Source: a virus
IMG/VR virus record: IMGVR_UViG_3300027891_000003
Location: 1-40,278 of that record
Length of the DNA: 40,278 nt
Reading direction: 5' to 3' (one strand)
Below are positions 4,252 to 40,278 of this stretch, in pieces (position 1 is the stretch's first letter; the number at the start of each line of letters is the position of its first letter). Made by a program: the position numbers and the translations under genes. Under the pieces are notes generated by a model, which saw only the letters and a list, made by a program, of their open reading frames with translations, made no database searches and was not told where the DNA came from.

Positions 4252-6669
4252 ATGGACTTACAAAAACTGACGCTCGCCCAATTCACACGTCTTGTCAATT
4301 CCACAAAGTACGGCACGGTGATGACCAAGTCGAAGGCCATCGAATGGCAGGATCAGGGCGGGATGCAGGTCGGAGATATTTTGAACAAAAACATCAACCT
4401 GTACAAGTTCACGGCGTGGATGTTCGACCGCCGTGTCAACCAAAGACGAAAACGCGCGGAACGCAGAGAAGACCGCAGGTATATACAGAACGAAGCAAAC
4501 AAACTCTTGCATCGCGAGACAAGAGAAGCAAACGCGGATATTGGAGAAATACCTGAGTGTGAGGACATGGCGCGTCGCGAAAGTTGCCGGGACTCTCTTG
4601 AACAGTTCATTCTCACCTACATCAAGCCGTCCATTCCCCACTGGAGGCCATTCAATAAATATCACTACCAACTGATCGAAGGAGTGGAAAGTTCGATCAA
4701 GCAACAGAAGTGCATCGCGTTTGCTTTGCCGAGGGCGTTTTTCAAAACATTTGTTTTGAGAGCGGGACTGCTGTGGGCGATTCTTTACCACAACAAAAAG
4801 CACAAATGTTTCGCCGTCACTTGCTCGACACTCAGAAAGACTTACACCACGTTCCGTTATATCATTCAAAATTTTGTTTCCGAAAAAGGTTTGATTTATC
4901 GTGATTTTCCTGAGTTGTGTTACCCGTTAAAAATTCTTTACGACAATCCCAAACGCCCGAGCACCTATCGCGGCGAACGCATACGCGGAAGTTTGGCCAA
5001 AGACCTGATCATTTTTCCATTTATTGAAGGCAGCCCCTATTCCGGTATCACGATTTCCATGTTCAGCATGGGAACGGAAGACATTCGCGGGACGGACACG
5101 ACCATCGACGGCGTGACCTATCGCACATCGATGGTATTTATTGACGACCCGCAAAACAACGAGACGGCACGCAGTAAAACGACGATTATCAATTACGATC
5201 ATAAACTGAATCAGGAAATCATGTTTCTCGCCGGGGACGACCCGGAAACAGGAAAGCAGCTCCCCACGACGGTTATTGTGGCCTGCACCTGCATCGGCGT
5301 GGACGATTTGGCCGAGCAGATTCTTGATCATAAAATTTACCCTCAGTATCGCGGTATCAAGGTTCCACGTCTGTTGAAAATGCCGGACTTGAGAAAGTGG
5401 TCGCTGTACAAGGACGTGAGAAATGCTGCCATACTTCAGGGGAAACAGGAACTGGCCACGCAGTATTATCTTGAACACAGAGAGGAACTGGACGCGGGGG
5501 CGGAGTGTATCGAAGATCATTTTGCATCCCATCAAGCCAGCGGAATTCAAGCTGCGATGGACATGTGGTGCAATAACGAATATGCCTTTTGGACCGAGCA
5601 ACAACAGAATCCCCACATGGCGCAATATGCCGTGTCGGGCGGGATCAGCGTCGATACCGTAACTCCGCCCATGATCGAGTCGCGCATGGTGAATATCAAC
5701 CGGCTTGTCATTCCATCAGAATCGCAGTTTATGGCGTCATTCATTGACGTCGGGAAAAATGTGTTGCACTACGAAACGACGGCGTTCGGTATCAAACGGA
5801 AATTCGCCCATGTTTTGGATTACTGTTTTTGGCCGGATCAGGGCGTCAGCCGCATCACGAAATCCACGCCGCGCGTCAAAATCGGCGATGCGTTTTACGG
5901 CGCGGACGAATTCGAGTGCCTATCCATTGCGCTAAGGGAATTGTTGTTTCACCTCACGCAACAAACCTATATCCTTCGAGACAAGGACGGTTCGCAAAGG
6001 CAAATGACGGAGGCGGATTTGTTGCGTCCGACGCAATACCGGCACGAATGGAGTGGTGACATTTACCCATTCTATTCTCTGATTGGGATTGACTGCACCG
6101 ATCAGACTTACGAGCAGACGATCTATGAAACCATCATCGCGTTTCAGGCGGATTGCCCGGCGTGGGAAAACCGCGTCATCCCGATGTACGCCGGATACGC
6201 GACAAACCGTTTGGTTTCACAATGGGATTTGAACTACGATCTCGGCGAACGGCAGCGCGGCAGGATGTTTGAGAACAAAGAATTTCAATCCAAGTATGGA
6301 AATACAAACTGCCACTGGATTGAGAATTCCAACAGAAATCTTGAAGTCAGGGAACGCAACCACCATGCCGTCCGCTACACGGTGTTTCGCGACGTGAACA
6401 AATTCAAGGAACGCGTGGTCAACACTTGGATCGACGGCACGACGTCCCTGTTCGCCCAAGACCCCGGCGATTTGCAGTGTTACGCCGAACACCAGAGCAA
6501 CGAAGTCCCAACAAAGGTTTACGTTGGAGGTTATGACTATTACCGTTTCAAGGAACGCAAGGGTGCCAATGGCAACGTGGATTACTTCGATTGTCGCGTC
6601 GGAACGGAAACGCTCTGCGATTACATCGGATGTTTTTCCGGGGTGAACCATGACAAGCCAAAATCGTGA
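4252..6669 (+). CDS. terL: Terminase large subunit with N-terminal extension of about 110 aa
   Basis: 805 aa. Degenerate P-loop region ALPRAFFKT, Walker B-like MVFIDDP, C-terminal nuclease-like acidic motifs (FIDVGKN, LIGIDCTD). Located at the head of the packaging/structural gene block, upstream of the portal but separated from it by the 6650-9362 island. Confidence 0.75.
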   Translation: MDLQKLTLAQFTRLVNSTKYGTVMTKSKAIEWQDQGGMQVGDILNKNINLYKFTAWMFDRRVNQRRKRAERREDRRYIQNEANKLLHRETREANADIGEIPECEDMARRESCRDSLEQFILTYIKPSIPHWRPFNKYHYQLIEGVESSIKQQKCIAFALPRAFFKTFVLRAGLLWAILYHNKKHKCFAVTCSTLRKTYTTFRYIIQNFVSEKGLIYRDFPELCYPLKILYDNPKRPSTYRGERIRGSLAKDLIIFPFIEGSPYSGITISMFSMGTEDIRGTDTTIDGVTYRTSMVFIDDPQNNETARSKTTIINYDHKLNQEIMFLAGDDPETGKQLPTTVIVACTCIGVDDLAEQILDHKIYPQYRGIKVPRLLKMPDLRKWSLYKDVRNAAILQGKQELATQYYLEHREELDAGAECIEDHFASHQASGIQAAMDMWCNNEYAFWTEQQQNPHMAQYAVSGGISVDTVTPPMIESRMVNINRLVIPSESQFMASFIDVGKNVLHYETTAFGIKRKFAHVLDYCFWPDQGVSRITKSTPRVKIGDAFYGADEFECLSIALRELLFHLTQQTYILRDKDGSQRQMTEADLLRPTQYRHEWSGDIYPFYSLIGIDCTDQTYEQTIYETIIAFQADCPAWENRVIPMYAGYATNRLVSQWDLNYDLGERQRGRMFENKEFQSKYGNTNCHWIENSNRNLEVRERNHHAVRYTVFRDVNKFKERVVNTWIDGTTSLFAQDPGDLQCYAEHQSNEVPTKVYVGGYDYYRFKERKGANGNVDYFDCRVGTETLCDYIGCFSGVNHDKPKS

Positions 6670-6877
6670 ACCGGGTTTCAAGTGCCCGATTTGTGGAAGA
6701 GGTCTTTACGTCTGTCACGTCCGGTTCAAGACGAAACAGGTCATGATACGCTACCGGAAATGCAAAGAAAGCAAAGGCGGTTGCGGCCATGAGGAGTTGA
6801 CTATCGAAAAGATTCTTGTATCAATAAACCAAGTGACTGCAATGGAGTCGTCGCAACGAATGATAACCTTTGAGTGA
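6650..6877 (+). CDS. Ogr/Delta-like zinc-finger transcription activator
   Basis: FKCPICGRG...IRYRKCKESKGGCGHEE gives a CxxC-N22-C-N6-C layout. Length of 75 aa is like P2 Ogr/Delta late activators. Confidence 0.6.
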   Translation: MTSQNREPGFKCPICGRGLYVCHVRFKTKQVMIRYRKCKESKGGCGHEELTIEKILVSINQVTAMESSQRMITFE

Positions 6878-6885
6878 GAGAGAAA

Positions 6886-7155
6886 ATGAAAACTATCTGG
6901 AAATTTCAAATGGAAATCACTGACGATGTGCAATTCATTCAGTTGCCTCAAGGATTCAAATTTATCCATTTTGAAATGCATGGAAAGAATCCCTGCTTTT
7001 GGGCAATCGTTGACAAACGGAAAAAACTCTGTGAATATCAGTTTGTGATAACCGGTACTGGTCAAGACATCCCGGAATCCGCAGTCTGGCTTGGAACATG
7101 TCTGGACCAAAGAAGTTCTTCCACTCTGGTTTGGCATTTGCACCATTTGATTTGA
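6886..7155 (+). CDS. Conserved small phage protein of unknown function
   Basis: ATG 6886 (MKTIWKFQMEITDDVQFIQLPQGFKFIHFEMHGKNPCFWAIVD...). Resembles a widespread small phage protein family with an MKxIWKY..L start. Confidence 0.55.
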   Translation: MKTIWKFQMEITDDVQFIQLPQGFKFIHFEMHGKNPCFWAIVDKRKKLCEYQFVITGTGQDIPESAVWLGTCLDQRSSSTLVWHLHHLI

Positions 7156-7168
7156 TACAAATTGATAA

Positions 7169-7501
7169 TCAATGATGTTTTCCAAAGAAGTATCTCAGAC
7201 CAAACCCCCACAAACCCAAGACAATCCCCAAGGTGTTTGTCAGGAAAGCAATCATCACAGGATCGGACAATTGAAAACAATCACAAGGGATGCCAACCAT
7301 AATCACAATGATTGCCGTGAAACCAAGCCAGATACAGGAAATCCATGCTAAAAGACGAATCAGCCACTTGCGATTTGTCATGTATTCCTGATGTAATTCC
7401 GCTCGTTCTTTTGCTGCCTGCTCGATCTCCACATCCGCTTGTGAGTCTTGTGGTAAAATTTTCGCAACGTTTTTAATAAAAGATTTTTCTTTCGGAGTCA
7501 C
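7169..7501 (-). CDS. Small 2-TM membrane protein, partner of the ImmA-like peptidase
   Basis: 110 aa. Charged N-terminal segment, then two hydrophobic helices (WLIRLLAWISCIWLGFTAIIVIMVGI, VMIAFLTNTLGIVLGLWGFGL). 4-nt overlap with the upstream gene. Confidence 0.65.
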   Translation of the reverse strand: MTPKEKSFIKNVAKILPQDSQADVEIEQAAKERAELHQEYMTNRKWLIRLLAWISCIWLGFTAIIVIMVGIPCDCFQLSDPVMIAFLTNTLGIVLGLWGFGLRYFFGKHH

Positions 7502-7989
7502 AGATATTGTCTCCTGATACGAATGACTTCAGCAGATACTCCGAACCACTTCGCAAACTGCGCATCCGTTGCATAAGGATACAATTCAAGATACTCACGT
7601 AAAAATATTTCAGGAACCAAAAGATTGCCAGCAAACCAGTTTGCCTCTTTTTCCATGTAGTTATTTTCCATTTGCGTTGTGTCACGCAATAGGACGCTGT
7701 AGCCTTCATTCAAGTGATGTCCACGCAAAAAATGGCCAAGTTCGTGAGCAATCGTAAAATTTTGTCTTACCGGCGGGTCTTCAGCATTCACTGCGATTGC
7801 CATTTCATCGGTATCGATAAAACCGGCAATGTCCTCGTGATCTTCGTTAAATTGAACACGATAGACTTTGAGACCGTAAGATGGCGCGAGCCGCGATGCT
7901 ATCACAGGAGGTCTGGCAACCATGTTCTGTTTGAGCACTTCTTTAGCCAGTTGTTTGACAGCGTTGTAATCAGGTTTTTCAAGAGACAT
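7498..7989 (-). CDS. ImmA/IrrE-family (COG2856/DUF955) zinc metallopeptidase, no HTH
   Basis: HEXXH in FTIAHELGHFLRGHH plus downstream EKEANWFAGNLLVPE. GGAGG RBS upstream. Confidence 0.8.
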   Translation of the reverse strand: MSLEKPDYNAVKQLAKEVLKQNMVARPPVIASRLAPSYGLKVYRVQFNEDHEDIAGFIDTDEMAIAVNAEDPPVRQNFTIAHELGHFLRGHHLNEGYSVLLRDTTQMENNYMEKEANWFAGNLLVPEIFLREYLELYPYATDAQFAKWFGVSAEVIRIRRQYL

Positions 7990-8011
7990 AAATTCACCTC
8001 CATTTTATTAC

Positions 8012-8040
8012 ATAATACGAAAACTGTACCATACAGTCAA
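8012..8040 (-). promoter_or_regulatory. Putative sigma70-type promoter of the peptidase/TM operon
   Basis: Gene-sense reading is TTGACT-17 nt (ending tttcg)-TATTAT, followed 10 nt later by GGAGG and the ATG. Confidence 0.5.
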
Positions 8041-8112
8041 GATTGATTTTTTAACAAAATAAGAAAAATAATCAAAATAGTGAAAAAACAGTTGCGTTTT
8101 TTGTCCGTTTGA

Positions 8113-8556
8113 ATGAGAATAGCTATCATGCGGTATCAATACTTGGTTTTGATTTTTGTTTTGGTTTTGTCCGTTGCGCTGTTGTGCTACGCACAGACCG
8201 CCGCGAAGCCGGGGTACGTTTACGTGCTTTCGAACGTTGGTTCGTTCGGTGAAGGGGTTTACAAAGTCGGAATGACGCAACGGGAAAAACCGCTTGACCG
8301 CGTCCGTGAACTCGGCGACGCTTCGGTTCCGTTTCCGTTCGATGTGCATGTGATGATCGCCACCAACGATCCGCGTGGTCTGGAGCGCAAAATCCAAAAC
8401 GACCTGAATGAATTTCGCGTCAACAAAATCAATACAAAAAAAGAGTTTTTCCGCACCGATCTCGATACAATCGTTAGTATCATTGAAAAACACAACGGCA
8501 AGCCGTTTGATGTCACGCATGATGTAAAATCTACAGAATTTCAGCGGAGTCTTTGA
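8113..8556 (+). CDS. T5orf172/MUG113 (GIY-YIG-like) domain protein with N-terminal hydrophobic signal-anchor
   Basis: GYVYVLSN...GVYKVGMTQRE..RVRELG...PFPFDVH...EFFRTDLD fits the T5orf172 pattern. It is preceded by YLVLIFVLVLSVALLCYAQTA. Confidence 0.7.
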   Translation: MRIAIMRYQYLVLIFVLVLSVALLCYAQTAAKPGYVYVLSNVGSFGEGVYKVGMTQREKPLDRVRELGDASVPFPFDVHVMIATNDPRGLERKIQNDLNEFRVNKINTKKEFFRTDLDTIVSIIEKHNGKPFDVTHDVKSTEFQRSL

Positions 8557-8558
8557 GC

Positions 8559-9362
8559 ATGAAAAGATCAATATTATTAATTTGCATTTTTTTGATTTTT
8601 GCCAATATATTAACTGTTGATTGCTTTTCACAAGCATCGATGAGTTATGAATCCTTGCAGCGCAAGGACTTCAATACTATTCATCAACATAGAATTGATT
8701 CTGCACGTTATGCAATTGAATCAGGCAACAAACAAATGGATATTTTTAAAGAAAAATTGAATGAAAAATTTGGAGATGATGAATCGCTGAAAGAAATAGC
8801 GATGCCATTTATTAAAGAGATAATACAACAATCATCAAGAATAAAGGAGTATGAAGAGTATATTTTTAATACGATTGATGAATATAAAGACAAAGATGGT
8901 AAAAAAAGATATGAAAATACCATTGAATTTTCAAGATATGTTACATCTCTAATACAAATCGATCACGACAAAAAAATTCAATACTATAAAGACAACAAAA
9001 TCAAAACAAGGACGACTCCAACAGGATTTGAACAAATGATTGCATTGTCGAAAAAGATTGAAAAGAAATTCGTCGATGAAAAAAAGAAAGCGGAAATTCG
9101 CGCTGAAAATGAAAGAAAAGCAGAAGAACGACGATTATCAGTGGCAGCAAAGAGAGAAGCTGAATCAAAGGAAAAGGAAACGGGGTTCCGAACATGGACG
9201 ACTGCTGACGGCAAGCAACAAATCAGTGCAAAGTTTATTGGATACACTGAAGATGGAAAAGCAAGACTAGAGCGAGAAGATGGGCGATCTGGCGCAATTG
9301 CAGTGAAACTTTTGTCGCAAGCAGACCAAGAATATCTTACAAAGAAAAACTCCTACAAATAA
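8559..9362 (+). CDS. Secreted coiled-coil protein with C-terminal SHD1-like domain
   Basis: Signal-peptide-like MKRSILLICIFLIFANILTVDCFSQA and a K/E-rich middle. The C-terminus FRTWTTADGKQQISAKFIGYTEDGKARLEREDGRSGAIAVKLLSQADQEYL matches the SHD1 pattern. Confidence 0.65.
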   Translation: MKRSILLICIFLIFANILTVDCFSQASMSYESLQRKDFNTIHQHRIDSARYAIESGNKQMDIFKEKLNEKFGDDESLKEIAMPFIKEIIQQSSRIKEYEEYIFNTIDEYKDKDGKKRYENTIEFSRYVTSLIQIDHDKKIQYYKDNKIKTRTTPTGFEQMIALSKKIEKKFVDEKKKAEIRAENERKAEERRLSVAAKREAESKEKETGFRTWTTADGKQQISAKFIGYTEDGKARLEREDGRSGAIAVKLLSQADQEYLTKKNSYK

Positions 9363-9380
9363 TCTCAAAAAATAAATTCA

Positions 9381-9403
9381 GCCCCGACCGCCGGGGCTTT
9401 TTT
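9381..9403 (+). terminator. Rho-independent terminator
   Basis: gccccg-accg-ccggggc stem-loop followed by tttttt. Confidence 0.8.
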
Positions 9404-9464: not shown

Positions 9465-9492
9465 TTGATGTTTCCCGGAATCGCTCTATAGT
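9465..9492 (+). promoter_or_regulatory. Putative promoter of the head operon
   Basis: TTGATG-16 nt-TATAGT, about 20 nt upstream of ATG 9512. Confidence 0.45.
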
Positions 9493-9511
9493 GCGATCAA
9501 GGGAAACGACC

Positions 9512-9706
9512 ATGTCTGACTTCGGCACCATTCTTCAAAATCAATTCGACGAAGGCGCGCGCGTTCAATCGGCGTCGGGCGACGGGATCACTATCTCGTT
9601 CCAGAATCCGAAAGATGCGGTCGAGGCCGAAATGCTGAAAGAAGCACTCGACCAGATGCGACAGGGTGTTGTCATTGCCACCGTAACGGGAGCGAATCGC
9701 GGATAG
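9512..9706 (+). CDS. Small hypothetical protein (64 aa)
   Basis: ATG 9512 inside ORF 9491-9706. It sits between the promoter and the portal gene. Confidence 0.5.
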   Translation: MSDFGTILQNQFDEGARVQSASGDGITISFQNPKDAVEAEMLKEALDQMRQGVVIATVTGANRG

Positions 9707-9716
9707 ATTTTAATTT

Positions 9717-9802
9717 TCACCACGAAGAGCACGAAGAACACGAAGTTTTTTAAAAATTGTTTATGAAAATCCCTTCGTGGTTCTTCGTGACCTTCGTGGT
9801 GA
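9717..9802. repeat. Long imperfect palindromic element, copy A (CACCACGAAG..ACGAAG arms)
   Basis: Left arm tcaccacgaagagcacgaagaacacgaag (9717-9745). Loop contains gtttatgaaaat. Right arm cttcgtggttcttcgtgaccttcgtggtga (9773-9802). Near-identical second copy at 14349-14423. Confidence 0.85.
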
Positions 9803-9812
9803 ATCAAATATT

Positions 9813-12158
9813 ATGAAACGCAAGAAACGAAAACAACCCGCCCACACTGCAAACCACGCGATTGCCCGCGTGGAGGCGGTTTCGTTTCAGCCGGATACGT
9901 GGCAACGATGGATCGGGGCAAGACAATTTCTCGATGCCGTCCAACCGATCACGGTCATGGACCGAAACGAAGCGACGGCGAGATCGCGCTATTTGTTCAC
10001 GCACAGTTCACACGTCGCCGGAATGCTTCGTAACATTGCATCGCAGGTGATCGGCACTGGGGCGGCTCTCGAATTTTCCATCGACCACCTGATCGATGAC
10101 CGCAAAAGCGCGACGCTCAACAGGATGTCCCGCGAGATTTCGTACAAAGTCCAGTCAAAATTTCATCAATGGGCGGACGAAACCGGGCTGTTTCAAGAAC
10201 TTTACAATGCGATCATCGATCTTTACACAACCGGCGACAGCTTCGGCGTCATGGTGCCCGACCCGGACAATGAAATTTGCCCCGTCCGTTACTTGACCAT
10301 CGACCCAGTGCGCGTCGGAAACCCGAACAACACGATCAACACGGTCGATCAACTCGACGGCATCAACTACAACAGGTACGGTAAGCCGACGCACTACACG
10401 ATCTACGAAATTCCAGAAAATGTCAACGGTTCGTGGAATGCGATGCGTTACAAAACCATCCCGGAAAGTCAGGTTTGCCACATTTACCTCAAGGATTTCA
10501 GCGAGGGACGGCGCGGAATCAGCCCCTTGCTTCCTGTTCTGGAAGACATTGGACGGTTGATCGACTACGAAACGAATTACCTTGAGCAGATCAAGAATCA
10601 AGCGGCGTTTATCGGTTTTATCGAGACCGAACGCAACGCCATGTCGGGTGCCAACCTCACCAAGAGCGCGTTTGAACAAGCACTCGACAATTTCAACGCG
10701 CCGAACAACAGGCACATCAACAGGTGCAAACTCCCCATCCTGACTCCCGGTAGCAATTGGAAGTCAGCACCCAACGCGCCGAACAATATCACCTACGACA
10801 ATTACGTCCAAACGAAGCTTGCAGCCATTGCACACGCCCTGCAAATCCCAAAACACATCGCAGTCAACTCGGCTGAGAAAGGTTCCTACTCGTCCATCCG
10901 GCTTGAACAACAACGCCAGCAGGTTTGGCTGGACACGCTGAGAAAAATCGTGGACGTAAGAATCCACAATCGCATCTTCCGGTATTTTTACCAGTGGATT
11001 TTGCCGGATTTGTACGAAGAGTACATCGACGAATACTTCAAGTATATTCCCGAACCGGAAAACGTTTGCATCAAGTGGAACTACCCGACGCCGGAGGGAA
11101 TCAACCCGAAAGACAAGGTGGAAATGCTTGTCCTCGCGCTCGACAACGACCTGATTACACCCGATCAGGCTGTCAAGGCGATGGGCAACTCGACCAGCGT
11201 CACGGACATCATCGACAAAAAGACAGAGAAGGACACCTACCGCAACCAAATGGCCGGGACGGTGGAAACCAGTTACGTTGACATCACTCTTGCCAACAGT
11301 ATCAAGGAAACGATCAAGCAGGTGCAGGCCGGTGAGATCATGGAAAGCCAGGCGATTCAACTGCTCGAAAAAGTCTATGGCATCGAACGCGAAACGGCAG
11401 TGTCGATCATTACCGGAGAAGACCCCAAAACACCTGAAACGACGCTTGAATTGACGCCGGAAACGAACACGCTCAACAAATCGGTAGCGAATCGCACAAG
11501 AATTGTCATGCCGATCTGCGGTACACTCAAGCAAAAGGTCATTGCCGCTTTGCAGGAAAACAAAAACAGGGATTTGTACTTTGTGGACGCCGTGCTTGTT
11601 TCGACCGGCATGAATAATAAAGACGACGTGTTTTTGCGTGATGAACTCTGGAAGGCGCGCAACACGCCGATCAACAAGCCCACGAACATCGAGCACTATT
11701 CCAATATCGCCATCGGTCACATTACGGAAACATGGGCGACGGCTTTTGGAAGCGACGAAGAAATCCGTTCTCTGCGCGATTTGCCGGAAGAGTTTCACTT
11801 GAATTGCCGCAGCGTCATTTACCGGAAGCTTGAAGGCGATTTGGGAACGGCCATCCGCGATTTGATTTTGCGAATCGAGGCCGACGAAATGAGCGTGTCG
11901 ATGGAGGTATGGTTCGACGATTACGATTTTGCCTTTCAAAATAAGGACGGAAGCATTGAAGTCATTCCGCGCGACTCAAGCAATGCGTCCATGAAAAAAT
12001 ACCTCAAAGCCTATCGCGGTCCGGGCGAGTACGAAGGGCGGCGCATCGGCAGAGCTTTTCGCGGCATCGAGTTCATCGGGATGGGTTTCGTTGAAAACCC
12101 GGCGAACGAATATTCGGAAATTTTGGGCGGGTCGTTTTTTGAGTCCGCATTAAATTAA
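9813..12158 (+). CDS. Portal protein with C-terminal prohead-protease-like extension
   Basis: 782 aa from ATG 9813; the track start at 9777 lies inside the palindromic element. Positioned as the first large gene of the head operon, immediately upstream of the capsid gene (the terminase lies 3.1 kb further upstream, beyond the accessory island). The last ~220 aa carry His (NIEHYSNIAIGHI) and Ser (MSVSMEVW) motifs and GMGFVENPAN, like HK97-type prohead proteases. Confidence 0.65.
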   Translation: MKRKKRKQPAHTANHAIARVEAVSFQPDTWQRWIGARQFLDAVQPITVMDRNEATARSRYLFTHSSHVAGMLRNIASQVIGTGAALEFSIDHLIDDRKSATLNRMSREISYKVQSKFHQWADETGLFQELYNAIIDLYTTGDSFGVMVPDPDNEICPVRYLTIDPVRVGNPNNTINTVDQLDGINYNRYGKPTHYTIYEIPENVNGSWNAMRYKTIPESQVCHIYLKDFSEGRRGISPLLPVLEDIGRLIDYETNYLEQIKNQAAFIGFIETERNAMSGANLTKSAFEQALDNFNAPNNRHINRCKLPILTPGSNWKSAPNAPNNITYDNYVQTKLAAIAHALQIPKHIAVNSAEKGSYSSIRLEQQRQQVWLDTLRKIVDVRIHNRIFRYFYQWILPDLYEEYIDEYFKYIPEPENVCIKWNYPTPEGINPKDKVEMLVLALDNDLITPDQAVKAMGNSTSVTDIIDKKTEKDTYRNQMAGTVETSYVDITLANSIKETIKQVQAGEIMESQAIQLLEKVYGIERETAVSIITGEDPKTPETTLELTPETNTLNKSVANRTRIVMPICGTLKQKVIAALQENKNRDLYFVDAVLVSTGMNNKDDVFLRDELWKARNTPINKPTNIEHYSNIAIGHITETWATAFGSDEEIRSLRDLPEEFHLNCRSVIYRKLEGDLGTAIRDLILRIEADEMSVSMEVWFDDYDFAFQNKDGSIEVIPRDSSNASMKKYLKAYRGPGEYEGRRIGRAFRGIEFIGMGFVENPANEYSEILGGSFFESALN

Positions 12159-14013: not shown

Positions 14014-14343
14014 ATGAGTCAAAGAACATACTCTTTTCCCGGCTTTGATTTTGAAGCCGTCGTGGACACGCCCGCCGGAACCATACTGGTGTTCAACCAG
14101 TTGATCGGAATCACGACAGATTCCATTCCAAAAGGCACAAAGGCAGGCGTCGCACAGCAAGGACACTTCCTGTTCGATACGGCAGAAGCCAAAGCCATAG
14201 CCTATACCAAAGGCGCGCCTGTGTATATCACTGCGTCCGCCGGGATCGGCACGATCACGGCAACCGGAATACAAATCGGCGTCGCAACGAAAGATTCCCC
14301 CGTCGGTCAGCCGCTCGAATGCATTTTGAAGCTGGGACATTAA
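14014..14343 (+). CDS. DUF2190-like head decoration/cement protein
   Basis: 109 aa. The pattern ...LIGITTDSIPKGTKAGVAQQGHFLF...GAPVYI...IQIGVATKDSPVG..LECILKLG is like DUF2190 proteins encoded next to capsid genes. Confidence 0.6.
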   Translation: MSQRTYSFPGFDFEAVVDTPAGTILVFNQLIGITTDSIPKGTKAGVAQQGHFLFDTAEAKAIAYTKGAPVYITASAGIGTITATGIQIGVATKDSPVGQPLECILKLGH

Positions 14344-14348
14344 TTTAT

Positions 14349-14423
14349 TCACCACGAAGAACACAAAGAACCACGAAGGAGTTTATGAAAAATCTTCGTG
14401 TTCCTTCGTGACCTTCGTGGTGA
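14349..14423. repeat. Long imperfect palindromic element, copy B
   Basis: tcaccacgaagaacacaaagaaccacgaag (14349-14378), loop gagtttatgaaaaat, cttcgtgttccttcgtgaccttcgtggtga (14394-14423). The right arm differs from copy A at about 3 positions. Confidence 0.85.
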
Positions 14424-29622: not shown

Positions 29623-30075
29623 CTACCTGACGAATTTTGTAAGCAAACCAAATGAGTAAACCAATGCCGTATAAATGGCAATGGGAAACCAATATTTGAT
29701 TTGTTCGGAAGTTAGTTGCGAGATGGCTTGAGTGATTGCCTCGCGTGAGAAATCGCCAATGGGGGCAAGTTTTGATTTGATTTTTTCCCAACGGTTTTTA
29801 TCCCTGATTTTGTCGAGATATTCGTGACCTGACCACGTAATGAATTCAATGTGAGGTTGCACACTGTGTATCCTTCCCTTGCATTTGATAAAACCAGCCG
29901 ACACCATGATTTCAATGGCATTCCATATTTCATTGCATTGATAAGATTTGAAATGATCGAATTCGATCACGGCGTCATGTTTTCCATGTAATTTTTCTGA
30001 CTCGTCAATTGCGATGTTATTATGTTTTTCAACTAATAATAAAATTTCACGAATTAAATCAAGATTGCGTTTCAT
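29623..30075 (-). CDS. DUF2513-like winged-helix protein with C-terminal TM helix (paralogue B)
   Basis: MKRNLDLIREILLLVEKH...FITWSGHEYLDKIRDKNRWEKIK is the canonical DUF2513 pattern. C-terminus YWFPIAIYTALVYSFGLLTKFV. AGGAGG RBS. Confidence 0.75.
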   Translation of the reverse strand: MKRNLDLIREILLLVEKHNNIAIDESEKLHGKHDAVIEFDHFKSYQCNEIWNAIEIMVSAGFIKCKGRIHSVQPHIEFITWSGHEYLDKIRDKNRWEKIKSKLAPIGDFSREAITQAISQLTSEQIKYWFPIAIYTALVYSFGLLTKFVR

Positions 30076-30272: not shown

Positions 30273-30517
30273 TTTGAAAACATAACAAGTGATCGTTACA
30301 CAGTGTTGTTTTTCAACAGATTATAGCGATTGTAAACATAAGAACCATGAATTCCATTGATTTTTTGGAATTTGTAGGTCAGGAAAAAATGACATTGAAT
30401 TAGGCTGAAAACTGTTGTCAAAATGTTTGGCAACGGAACACATAACAGCCTGGCATCGGAGGTCGGCAATCCATTGAACGGCGTCCGGTGCGAACATCAG
30501 AGGTTGCGTACCGACGT

Positions 30518-31477
30518 ATGAGGTACTCAACCATGACGATGCAACATTTTTTTGACACGACCTACAAACAGTATTTGTCCGCGAAGGGAACGCGGGCAAG
30601 CAGTATTTCCGATGTGCAGAGCACACTAAACAAATGGAATGATATCATCGGAGCAATCGCACTGGACGCGATTGCCGACGAAACGATTTGGCATTTTGCC
30701 GCGACGCTGTCCGGCCAAAAGAACGCAAAGGGCTTGGCTTTCAGCCCGAACACCACAAGAAAGCATTTGAGAAATATTCGGGCGATTTTGCGGTACGCCT
30801 TGAAGCGACGCATGATCGGCCAAATGCCGGACATCATCATGCCGAAAGAACGATTTCGCGGAGCGTGCGACTCATTCACATTCAGCGAAATTCAGACGTT
30901 GATCCAAACAACATCGATGTTCAAAGGCCAAGAGATTGATGGCATGGACGCGGCGGAATGGTGGAAACAATTGATTGTTTTCCTTTACTGTTCGGCCTGC
31001 CGTGTTGGAACGGCAACGAAGGCAAGATTCGACTGGGTGCATGGCAACCGGCTCGAAATTGCCGCAAACACCGATGGAGTCAAGACCTGCTATGATTTAC
31101 CGCTTGGAAACGAGGCCCAATCGGTGATAGGAATGATGCGGCGATCCCACAAGGAAAGCCGTATCTTTCCGAACCCTCACAAGAGGGAATGGTTGCACCG
31201 CCGGTTTCGGGAGTTATGCGAAGAAGCAGGAATACCGCCAGAACGCCGGTTTGGTTTTCACGGGATTCGTAAGCATACCGGCAGTGTCATGGCGACAAAG
31301 GATTTTGCGGCGGCGGTCAAACTGCTTGGCCACAGCGATCCCAAAGTGACGGCCAGGTATTATTTGAATCCCGAAATCGTTTGCGAAAAGGCGGTGGAAA
31401 GGATACCGCCGCTGCACCATGACGGGATATTCAAGCGGGTTTGGAAACAGATTGTGCGATTGTTTTTTGGAAAATAA
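30518..31477 (+). CDS. int: Tyrosine recombinase / phage integrase
   Basis: C-terminal FGFHGIRKHTGS...LLGHSDPKVTARYY (HxxR ... Y) and earlier ACRVGTA (Arg I). Start ambiguous: GTG 30488, or ATG 30518, 30533 or 30539. Confidence 0.85.
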   Translation: MRYSTMTMQHFFDTTYKQYLSAKGTRASSISDVQSTLNKWNDIIGAIALDAIADETIWHFAATLSGQKNAKGLAFSPNTTRKHLRNIRAILRYALKRRMIGQMPDIIMPKERFRGACDSFTFSEIQTLIQTTSMFKGQEIDGMDAAEWWKQLIVFLYCSACRVGTATKARFDWVHGNRLEIAANTDGVKTCYDLPLGNEAQSVIGMMRRSHKESRIFPNPHKREWLHRRFRELCEEAGIPPERRFGFHGIRKHTGSVMATKDFAAAVKLLGHSDPKVTARYYLNPEIVCEKAVERIPPLHHDGIFKRVWKQIVRLFFGK

Positions 31478-32990: not shown

Positions 32991-33329
32991 TTATTGATAA
33001 AACAACATCCAAAATACAAGTTGCACGATGGCATTTGTGATTGCTGTGAACACAGTACCTGCTATGAATCCCAAACAAACGTAGAGCTTGACGTTCCTTT
33101 TTTCAATGAATCTGAGACCTTCTGATGTAAGATAAGCACCTGTTAGATTCCCTTGCATTGTGCAATTCAAGTATTGTTTATCTAAATAACCACAGATTGT
33201 CAAAGAGTCAATGGCATCAATAAAACGTTTCACACGGTCGTCAGATGATAGGAAAATGTCACTTGACATTTCTCTGTTTCCTGAAGCAATGTGACGTAGT
33301 ATGGCAAGTTGAAGTTGTTGATTTGTCAT
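32991..33329 (-). CDS. wHTH (DUF2513-like) protein with hydrophobic C-terminus (paralogue C); repressor candidate, apparently leaderless
   Basis: MTNQQLQLAILRHIASGN...SLTICGYLDK...AYLTSEGLRFIEKR, then LYVCLGFIAGTVFTAITNAIVQLVFWMLF. The -10 element ends 6 nt before the ATG. Confidence 0.55.
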   Translation of the reverse strand: MTNQQLQLAILRHIASGNREMSSDIFLSSDDRVKRFIDAIDSLTICGYLDKQYLNCTMQGNLTGAYLTSEGLRFIEKRNVKLYVCLGFIAGTVFTAITNAIVQLVFWMLFYQ

Positions 33330-33335
33330 TTGCGA

Positions 33336-33364
33336 ACGATACGAAATCACAGTCAGTGGCACAA
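33336..33364 (-). promoter_or_regulatory. Promoter of paralogue C
   Basis: Gene-sense TTGTGC-17 nt (..gatttcg)-TATCGT-tcgcaa-ATG. Confidence 0.5.
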
Positions 33365-33408
33365 GGCCAGTTTTTCAATAATTTTCAGGAATTTTACCGG
33401 AATTGGAA

Positions 33409-33437
33409 TTGTTTCCGTGGTCAGGAGTTGGTATTAT
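33409..33437 (+). promoter_or_regulatory. Rightward promoter of the Cro-like gene
   Basis: TTGTTT-17 nt-TATTAT, preceded by GGAATT direct repeats (33388, 33399, 33405). Confidence 0.45.
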
Positions 33438-33481
33438 GCCGCGACTTTTTGAACATCCAGAACACACGGGGGAATTCCATC

Positions 33482-33727
33482 ATGGCAGCCGCACGTCCCA
33501 AGAAAGAGGTGGATATGAGCACTTACGCGGGCAAGTTCGCCGCGCACATCCGGCAACTCCGGCTCAAGGCAAAACTCTCGGTGGAAGAACTGGCCGAGAA
33601 GTCAGGAATTGCCAAACGGACGTTGTATGCTTGGGAATCAGGGGAATTTTCACCTCTCATAGACCAGCTACCATCTCTTGCGCGAGGTATTGGTGTGAAA
33701 ATCGGGAAACTATTTCCAGAAGAATAG
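33482..33727 (+). CDS. XRE-family HTH protein (Cro-like)
   Basis: FAAHIRQLRLKAKLSVEELAEKSGIAKRTLYAWESGEFSP is an HTH_3 pattern. Confidence 0.75.
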   Translation: MAAARPKKEVDMSTYAGKFAAHIRQLRLKAKLSVEELAEKSGIAKRTLYAWESGEFSPLIDQLPSLARGIGVKIGKLFPEE

Positions 33728-40159: not shown

Positions 40160-40278
40160 AATTGGATTTGTCATGGAAATTGGAGTTGACGAAATGATAT
40201 TGGATTGACTGCAAAGATGGCGAATGGATATATTCGATTAAGCAGAAAGTTTTTTTCAGGCCATTACTGGATTCAGGA
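40160..40278. repeat. Terminal direct repeat, copy 2
   Basis: Exact copy of nt 1-119, including the start of the replication gene. Confidence 0.95.

Follow-up and report, generated by a model that had tools for sequence, protein, structure and literature searches.

We analysed a 40,278-nt stretch of viral DNA (IMG/VR record IMGVR_UViG_3300027891_000003, positions 1 to 40,278, hereafter the window) with a focus on region 7169-9362, which lies between the genes taken to encode the large terminase and the portal protein. Four genes occupy this region in two divergent pairs. On the minus strand, a gene for a Zn-peptidase of family M78 (7498-7989; Pfam Peptidase_M78) precedes a gene for a 110-aa protein with two transmembrane (TM) segments (7169-7501), here called the 2-TM protein. 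On the plus strand, a T5orf172 gene (8113 or 8128 to 8556, gene callers choosing 8128; Pfam T5orf172) is followed by an SHD1 gene (8553 or 8559 to 9362; Pfam SHD1). The pairs are separated by an A/T-rich intergenic stretch of 123 nt (26% GC). A previous sequence-only reading of this DNA had treated the four genes as one uncharacterised exclusion, defence or host-interaction module. We find instead that the region is a mosaic of two independent accessory cassettes, and that the minus-strand pair is probably a divergent toxin-antitoxin (TA) or abortive-infection-type defence moron of the RosmerTA type, as judged by homology of both its products to a RosmerTA pair of Gordonia phage Kita.

The peptidase and its membrane partner

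The peptidase (163 aa; Pfam Peptidase_M78, 6.5e-22) is a stand-alone Zn-peptidase of the ImmA/IrrE/CapP type that carries no helix-turn-helix (HTH) domain. Its HELGH motif spans residues 82-86, and H82, E83, H86 and E113 are invariant in 29 family sequences including that of Kita; the HEXXH site described as intact from the sequence is indeed so, with the downstream invariant Glu also in place. When compared with the PADLOC defence models, the peptidase matched capP best (4e-21, profile positions 3-144 of 242), followed by 13 RmrA models with values down to 4e-12, and the matches to the RmrA models begin at about position 135 of the models. The nearest PDB entries found with the peptidase family profile were CapP (7t5t, residues 24-173 of 291) and IrrE (3dte), in both cases over the peptidase domain only. 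Single-sequence PDB searches with the peptidase and with the T5orf172 protein returned nothing. Homologues with 46-71% identity are all about 160-175 aa long and contain the M78 domain only.

The only partner of the peptidase is, as had been noted, a small 2-TM protein. It has two hydrophobic segments, and its AlphaFold2 model (pLDDT 80) is a helical hairpin of helices 19-70 and 80-109, in which the long first helix runs from the cytoplasmic part into TM1. A word-indexed protein search with this sequence recovered only the query itself. An exhaustive HMMER search yielded a family of 134 cluster representatives at 50% identity, 100-170 aa in length. The N-terminal region of its members (about 45 residues) is charged and variable in sequence, TM1 is preceded by a conserved Arg (WLxFT), and a short loop leads into a second TM segment with the strongly conserved motif LSDxVxIAFLTTSLGTVLGLWxIGLRYFF. 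The family has no Pfam, NCBIfam or PADLOC model, and a search of IMG/VR with it found nothing. Pfam scans of 53 family members gave only scattered sub-threshold matches, among them one to SLATT_5 (0.019) that was dismissed as noise. Foldseek comparison of the model with BFVD gave no match, as is expected for a bare helical hairpin.

The peptidase and 2-TM genes overlap by 4 nt (GTGA, 7498-7501), in agreement with the sequence-only reading. The overlap requires a GTG start for the 2-TM gene, which is supported by the same tight junctions of at most 17 nt in 14 related loci and in Kita, where 4-nt overlaps, often ATGA, are frequent. A ribosome-binding site (GGAGG, 8001 to 7997, minus strand) lies 7 nt before the peptidase ATG. 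The TTGACT-17-TATTAT element that had been taken as a promoter of the pair is present at 8040 to 8012 on the minus strand, where it is a sigma-70-like consensus match and the top site of the region (10/12). Promoter-like sites numbered 12, against 6.2+/-3.0 in shuffled sequence, an excess of no more than about twofold, and the match by itself is weak evidence for a promoter.

The association of the two genes extends beyond the window. On longer contigs found with the peptidase, a homologous 2-TM open reading frame (ORF) of 109-127 aa lies directly downstream in three loci (L005, L007 and L008), and in a phage locus with a 46% identical peptidase (L011) the downstream product is a different protein with a signal-peptide-like N-terminus. 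Independent retrieval from the 2-TM side gave 3 genome loci and 13 metagenome loci, and wherever there was room upstream the peptidase was found immediately upstream on the same strand (14/14 loci; 3/3 genome, 11/11 metagenome). Peptidase similarity also predicts partner similarity (Mantel r = 0.72, 0/5000 permutations). The pairing in these loci, the tight junctions and this correlation indicate that the two genes are inherited and diverge as a unit.

The neighbours of the pair vary from locus to locus and include integrases (L017, L022 and L023), SocA_Panacea TA-like pairs (L005/L017 and L011), a RelA_SpoT gene (L027) and a second M78 gene (L021). These mobile, defence-type contexts count in favour of a defence role. 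In L008 the pair occupies an ordinary chromosomal site with an MFS (major facilitator superfamily) transporter gene on one side and an EPSP (5-enolpyruvylshikimate-3-phosphate) synthase gene on the other. We considered and rejected a holin/antiholin pair, since the genes lie far from any lysis genes and are also found at this plain chromosomal site. As a separate observation, the second M78 gene in L021 (3467-4018) encodes a different peptidase of 183 aa about 1.2 kb downstream of the pair and is followed by a 125-aa ORF; the two may constitute another protease-based pair in the same island.

Relationship to the RosmerTA system of Gordonia phage Kita

A tblastn search of the peptidase against GenBank phages gave its best near-full-length matches in a cluster of Gordonia phages that includes Kita, whose gp32 is 31.9% identical over 95% of the query. 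Kita gp32 and gp33 have been named RmrA_D25 (YP_009301393.1, Peptidase_M78) and RmrT_D5 (YP_009301394.1, 'Transmembrane'), respectively (Ernits et al. 2023, PMC10440598). The 178-aa gp32 is a metalloprotease without an HTH, and its gene shares a 4-nt overlap with the following gene, that of gp33, whose 119 aa comprise a charged N-terminus and, in the C-terminal part, two hydrophobic helices. When the 2-TM family profile was aligned with gp33, hhalign returned a probability of 95.3% (E 2e-8). The family HMM (hidden Markov model) scored 35.8 bits against gp33, compared with a maximum of 12.8 bits in 2000 shuffles made so that the soluble and the membrane half each kept their composition; no further Kita ORF in the region was matched. 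Members of the 2-TM family and gp33 also agree in their PHROG matches, a small linked set (13343, 26171 and 1544). Kita RmrA and the window peptidase share one PADLOC profile, with capP first and RmrA models after it, and neither RmrT_D5 nor the window 2-TM protein has a PADLOC model. Because the validated Kita toxin is equally without a model, the silence of PADLOC on the 2-TM partner is uninformative.

RmrT_D5 puts an end to translation, transcription and replication and forms pores that depolarise and permeabilise the membrane; together with its peptidase it defends E. coli from coliphages Bas54 and Bas59 (PMC10440598). The Kita and window systems are alike in being phage-encoded, in placing an HTH-less M78 peptidase (about 165-180 aa) before a protein of 110-120 aa that is charged at its N-terminus and has a 2-TM hairpin at its C-terminus, in the 4-nt start/stop overlap, and in the SDxVMIA...VLGL motif conserved in TM2; both proteins are homologous to their counterparts. 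They differ in host, which is Actinomycetota for Kita and probably Planctomycetota here, and the peptidases are only 32% identical. The Kita pair sits after the tail genes on the structural strand; the window pair is placed in the terminase-portal interval, runs against the structural genes and has a promoter-like site to itself.

The window pair resembles canonical RosmerTA, reportedly that of Millman et al. 2022, in combining a Zn-peptidase antitoxin with a toxin of otherwise unknown family, and its peptidase matches 13 RmrA models. Canonical RmrA proteins are about 360-400 aa long and begin with an Xre-type HTH; this half is missing from the window peptidase, and the 2-TM protein matches no PADLOC RmrT model. 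An N-terminal HTH, which is 'often' present on RmrA proteins of NetFlax node D25, is nonetheless not obligatory for the family, since the validated 178-aa RmrA_D25 of Kita also lacks it. The other sequence-level hallmarks of RosmerTA were all found, namely two adjacent, co-oriented and tightly coupled genes, an M78/COG2856 Zn-peptidase antitoxin with intact catalytic residues, and a partner homologous to a validated RmrT.

Interpretation of the minus-strand pair

The sequence-only reading had likened the layout to a protease-controlled membrane toxin, as in COG2856-type TA or abortive-infection modules, and the homology to the validated Kita pair bears this out. The label 'uncharacterised' does not hold, as the RosmerTA family has an experimentally studied member (PMC10440598). 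The system is already characterised in kind, and the window pair is a fresh divergent example of it rather than a new system.

By analogy with Kita, the 110-aa toxin would enter the cytoplasmic membrane via its C-terminal helical hairpin and, if unchecked, would form pores and depolarise the cell. The pair, which runs opposite to the late genes, would have a promoter of its own, and in a healthy lysogen, where expression is presumed, the co-translated peptidase would keep the toxin harmless. We infer that neutralisation is by proteolysis, and the peptidase would most likely act on the cytoplasmic N-terminal helix of the toxin. This substrate is suggested because there is no HTH to cleave and yet the catalytic site is strictly conserved. 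The N-terminal segment of the toxin is variable and co-diverges with the peptidase. Infection by a second phage may relieve the control, in which case the cell would be shut down before the invader replicates.

Several points weigh against this interpretation. Toxin homology is seen at the profile level only (27% identity over 74 columns), the promoter is proposed solely from a consensus match, little being known of promoters in planctomycetes, and with no PADLOC model for the 2-TM toxin standard tools would not call the system. Moreover, neutralisation of RmrT_D5 by RmrA_D25 was only partial and no complex between them could be modelled (PMC10440598).

The peptidase shares its M78 catalytic domain with ImmA/ImmR, IrrE/DdrO and CapP/CapH, for which CapP 7t5t and IrrE 3dte are the closest structures, and it could be a classical ImmA/CapP-type anti-repressor. 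It would then control induction by cleaving a distal Xre repressor, for which the product of 33245-33727 is a candidate, and the 2-TM protein would be a passenger with no link to it, such as a protein for superinfection exclusion. Other M78 peptidases (the ImmA, IrrE and CapP families) do work in this way, CapP is the best PADLOC and PDB match, an HTH_3 ORF is present in the early region, and in some relatives the pair lies beside integrases, as immA does. No HTH gene adjoins the peptidase in the window or in its relatives, however, and about 25 kb lie between it and the closest Xre-type HTH ORF. The lack of a fused or adjacent HTH that had been noted from the sequence is thus a conserved property of the relatives, and the profile searches did not place the peptidase in an ordinary ImmA/ImmR pair, in which an adjacent HTH repressor gene provides the protease substrate. 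Also absent are the C-terminal sensor domain of CapP and IrrE, a CapH-type HTH partner, and a regulated defence operon downstream such as the CBASS-like operon that would be expected near CapP/CapH. The partner is a 2-TM protein and never an HTH protein in 14/14 loci, including the chromosomal site between the MFS transporter and EPSP synthase genes; it co-diverges with the peptidase, and the homologous Kita pair behaves as toxin and antitoxin. We therefore regard an anti-repressor role as very unlikely.

Assignment of the pair to RosmerTA has several consequences. An unannotated 2-TM family of 134 clusters, strictly linked to an HTH-less M78 peptidase, is now tied to RmrT_D5, the sole experimentally studied toxin of its kind. 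The range of RosmerTA would be widened to Planctomycetaceae-type genomes and their phages, with a profile that is missing from current defence-finding tools. Furthermore, the invariant catalytic site in an antitoxin without an HTH sharpens the question of how RmrA neutralises its toxin, for which the cytoplasmic helix of the toxin is the obvious candidate substrate.

The T5orf172 and SHD1 genes

The T5orf172 protein (142-147 aa, depending on the start) matches Pfam T5orf172 with 1.9e-15 over positions 1-99 of 101. As described in the sequence-only reading, the domain lies behind a hydrophobic N-terminal segment; this helix is followed by an AxA|Q signal-peptidase-like site and then by a complete GIY-YIG/T5orf172 domain. 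In PADLOC the protein matches PD-Lambda-1 (7.7e-50), the match being confined to the nuclease region at the C-terminal end of the profile (positions 352-469 of 491). An E. coli P2-like phage carries, between its cI and int genes, a gene for a DUF4041-T5orf172 protein of 558 aa, and the window protein shares 60% identity with the C-terminus of that protein over 97 residues. No match to DUF4041 was found in the window protein, in which the first strand of the nuclease domain follows the hydrophobic helix after a gap of just about 6 residues. Its AlphaFold2 model (pLDDT 88) gave weak best Foldseek matches (E about 0.3) to the GIY-YIG nucleases Slx1, UPF0213 and HIGLE.

Nine relatives (57-65% identity) keep the length of the protein and its hydrophobic segment with flanking K/R residues; they also keep a (C/S/V/A)-x-A|Q(T/S) site, which is typical of signal peptidase I. 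The domain has 22 invariant columns in these sequences, including invariant Y, R, E and N positions. Given these conserved relatives, the short form does not appear to be debris. From the positive-inside rule and the AxA|Q site, the protein is predicted to be oriented N-in/C-out with an exported nuclease domain.

The PD-lambda-1 system is SNIPE, a GIY-YIG nuclease with an N-terminal TM helix oriented N-out/C-in (Saxton et al. 2026, PMC13190303). Its DUF4041 domain binds DNA, probably also binds the tape-measure protein, and is essential; SNIPE cleaves the DNA of phages as it is being injected, and tethering to the membrane guards against autoimmunity (PMC13190303). The sequence-only reading had found a membrane anchor odd on such a domain. 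In light of SNIPE it is not, because SNIPE is itself a membrane-tethered GIY-YIG/T5orf172 nuclease (PMC13190303) and the C-terminal domain of the window protein belongs to the same subfamily. The two proteins further share an N-terminal hydrophobic membrane-targeting segment and are both prophage-borne. In contrast to SNIPE, the window protein has neither DUF4041 nor the long coiled linker, measures 142-147 aa rather than about 490, and is co-transcribed with a separate exported protein. A conserved hydrophobic helix, which in SNIPE holds the nuclease at the cytoplasmic face, is present, but the charges on its flanks and the AxA|Q site point to the reverse orientation, N-in/C-out as against N-out/C-in. 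With DUF4041 absent, the window protein is not a member of SNIPE.

We also observed a second family of TM-plus-T5orf172 proteins without DUF4041 (P0209, P0228, P0233 and P0296; for example L035 224-727), 167-183 aa in length. In these proteins the TM helix lies at the extreme N-terminus and is followed by K/R residues and a conserved linker of about 30 aa (…YVPPPKEEYRYVETKIP…). Their topology is predicted to be SNIPE-like, although the DUF4041 domain essential in SNIPE is missing. The SNIPE model, with its essential DUF4041 and a tether that prevents autoimmunity, finds a natural test in the two topological types of TM-plus-nuclease proteins without DUF4041.

The SHD1 gene opens 2 nt after the stop codon of the T5orf172 gene and encodes a 267-aa protein. 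Its N-terminus, read directly from the sequence as MKRSILLICIFLIFANILTVDCFSQA|S, is a Sec-type signal, and Pfam SHD1 matches residues 206-266 (1.9e-07; 31.2 bits, cut-off 23.7), so that the signal-peptide coiled-coil protein with an SHD1 domain of the sequence-only reading stands. The product is accordingly predicted to be an exported coiled-coil protein ending in an SHD1 domain. The gene had been described as A/T-rich; its GC content is 33.3%, compared with 47.2% in the window overall, and of all 800-nt stretches in the window the one poorest in GC lies over it. No homologue of the protein was found in GenBank phages or in any fetched locus, making it an orphan. A G+C-rich terminator-like hairpin followed by T6 (9380-9398, -13.7 kcal/mol) closes the plus-strand pair, as anticipated, and it also scores as a minus-strand terminator.

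Close T5orf172 relatives have other partners. In L030 (3269-4219), L031 (2321-3559) and L033 (2294-3196), proteins of 300-410 aa are encoded up- or downstream of the T5orf172 gene; they share a GYF-like N-terminal domain of about 60 aa and a TM segment and have unrelated C-terminal regions. This suggests a variable-partner arrangement for exported T5orf172 relatives.

Interpretation of the plus-strand pair

The two plus-strand genes would form an operon for a membrane-targeted or exported GIY-YIG nuclease of the SNIPE subfamily and an exported coiled-coil SHD1 protein, in which targeting of the nuclease, DUF4041 being absent, would be supplied in trans. Tentatively, and with less than even probability, we take the plus-strand genes to specify a nuclease located in the envelope and a partner that can be exchanged, perhaps together an entry or superinfection-exclusion device. 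This reading must contend with the lack in the window nuclease of the domain that SNIPE cannot do without, with a predicted placement of the nuclease outside the cytoplasm, opposite to that in SNIPE, and with an SHD1 partner that is not conserved, the relatives being paired with GYF-like membrane proteins.

A more specific proposal, which we hold to be unlikely, is that the pair embodies the SNIPE principle in split and outward-facing form. A minimal GIY-YIG nuclease, exported or tethered at the periplasmic side, would be guided by a separately encoded and rapidly exchangeable envelope protein (SHD1 here, GYF-like in relatives) and would destroy phage DNA before it reaches the cytoplasm. If this were true, DUF4041 would be dispensable when targeting comes in trans, and injection-stage DNA cleavage could happen outside the cytoplasm.

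The T5orf172 gene might instead be what is left of a full-length SNIPE/PD-lambda-1 gene in decay, functionless and with an N-terminus that is hydrophobic by chance, next to an unrelated and recently acquired A/T-rich orphan. Such decay would account for a match confined to profile positions 352-469 of 491 and for the loss of a domain essential in SNIPE, and the SHD1 gene does have an aberrant GC content and no homologues. It fits poorly with the recurrence of the short form in nine relatives of 57-65% identity that retain its length, hydrophobic segment, AxA|Q site and 22 invariant columns, with the existence of a second short form without DUF4041 and of SNIPE-like topology, with a confident model (pLDDT 88), and with the spacing of only 2 nt between the T5orf172 and SHD1 genes. 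The 123-nt intergenic region is also too short for frameshifted remnants of DUF4041. We judge decay to be quite improbable.

Another explanation places the nuclease outside anti-phage functions altogether. It would then be lysogenic-conversion cargo, either a DNase that is secreted or periplasmic or a toxin used between bacteria, and the SHD1 protein would serve as helper or immunity factor. Both proteins have Sec-type N-termini, and the predicted topology is opposite to that of SNIPE. Nevertheless, the nuclease domain, at 60% identity, falls within the SNIPE subfamily, there are no toxin-delivery domains, and the partners in relatives are membrane proteins rather than small immunity-like proteins. 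In our estimation there is only a slim chance that this explanation is correct.

A mosaic of two cassettes

The proposal that all four genes work together has some initial appeal. As a single integrated divergent defence system, the peptidase, 2-TM, T5orf172 and SHD1 genes would be adjacent to one another and share the 123-nt A/T-rich control region (26% GC), as they do, and all four products are membrane- or envelope-related. At other loci the pairs do not travel together. None of about 20 peptidase/2-TM loci carries T5orf172, SHD1 or DUF7352, and tblastn searches of T5orf172, SHD1, DUF7352, terminase and portal against the pair-bearing loci matched only copies from the same phage. Conversely, the loci of close T5orf172 relatives are without the peptidase pair, and Kita carries that pair alone. 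A single four-gene system was thus rejected for want of co-occurrence, and we consider it extremely improbable; because the two pairs never co-occur at the other loci examined, the island is a mosaic of independent cassettes. Taken together, the region is a divergent member of a known defence family beside an architectural variant of another, and no new kind of system.

The phage genome and the terminase-portal interval

The window has an exact 119-nt direct repeat at its two ends (1-119 and 40160-40278), which indicates a circular assembly and a complete phage genome of about 40.16 kb. A tyrosine integrase (30488-31477, plus strand) is encoded together with RecT, a YqaJ-like exonuclease, Lar and a lambda-family portal, from which we conclude that the phage is temperate. 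The Xre-type HTH_3 ORF of the early region (33245-33727, plus strand) has its HTH at residues 102-155 of the longest ORF, so its true start is probably internal. A DUF2513 protein is encoded in the lysogeny/early region (29623-30075, minus strand), and a DUF2513 gene is likewise found near the close T5orf172 relative in L030. Relatives of the accessory genes were found in metagenome-assembled genomes of Planctomycetaceae, and on this basis the host is probably a member of that family.

The 805-aa product of 4252-6669 (plus strand) is taken to be the large terminase, an identity that rests on its size and its position upstream of the portal. It matched no Pfam, PHROG or NCBIfam model and had no tblastn match in GenBank phages. 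The portal protein (781 aa, plus strand) is encoded by an ORF that opens at 9777, with a likely ATG at 9813, and ends at 12158 (Pfam Phage_portal_2, 6.3e-39). These coordinates agree with the gap of about 3.1 kb between terminase and portal on which the sequence-only reading had remarked. Seven ORFs fill this interval. Apart from the two cassettes they comprise a 75-aa zinc-ribbon ORF (6650-6877, plus strand; weak Ogr/Delta-like match below the cut-off), a DUF7352 gene (6874-7155, plus strand; Pfam DUF7352 4.3e-22, phrog_3848) and a 71-aa ORF (9491-9706, plus strand). The zinc-ribbon and DUF7352 genes (6650 to 7155) are co-oriented with the terminase gene, are not found beside the peptidase/2-TM pair at other loci, and are context, outside both cassettes.

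Searches of IMG/VR with the terminase, portal and capsid proteins revealed no sibling phages, and the portal had only 23%-identity matches among GenBank phages, so that no related phage genome was present in these two collections. The sole blastn match of the island was a 121-nt stretch of the T5orf172 gene. Direct repeats that might be insertion scars around the cassettes were sought, and only short, chance-level matches were found.

The lambda-family domain of the portal protein stops near residue 500 (Phage_portal_2 at 61-379 and phrog_21 at 18-524). The C-terminal extension of about 260 aa beyond it has no family match and may represent a fused head-maturation or scaffold function. Finally, a hairpin element of about 85 nt occurs twice in the late region, in copies that are 79% identical (9716-9803 and about 14350-14420). 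The element is built of three CACGAAG repeats opposite three CTTCGTG repeats; the RNA of the first copy has a minimum free energy of -45.4 kcal/mol, and the CACGAAG heptamer is rare elsewhere in the window. The first copy lies between the 71-aa ORF and the portal ATG, and the second just 3' of the decoration/cement gene (14014-14343). These elements may serve as intercistronic RNA-stabilising or attenuator hairpins, or as a protein-binding site of the late operon.

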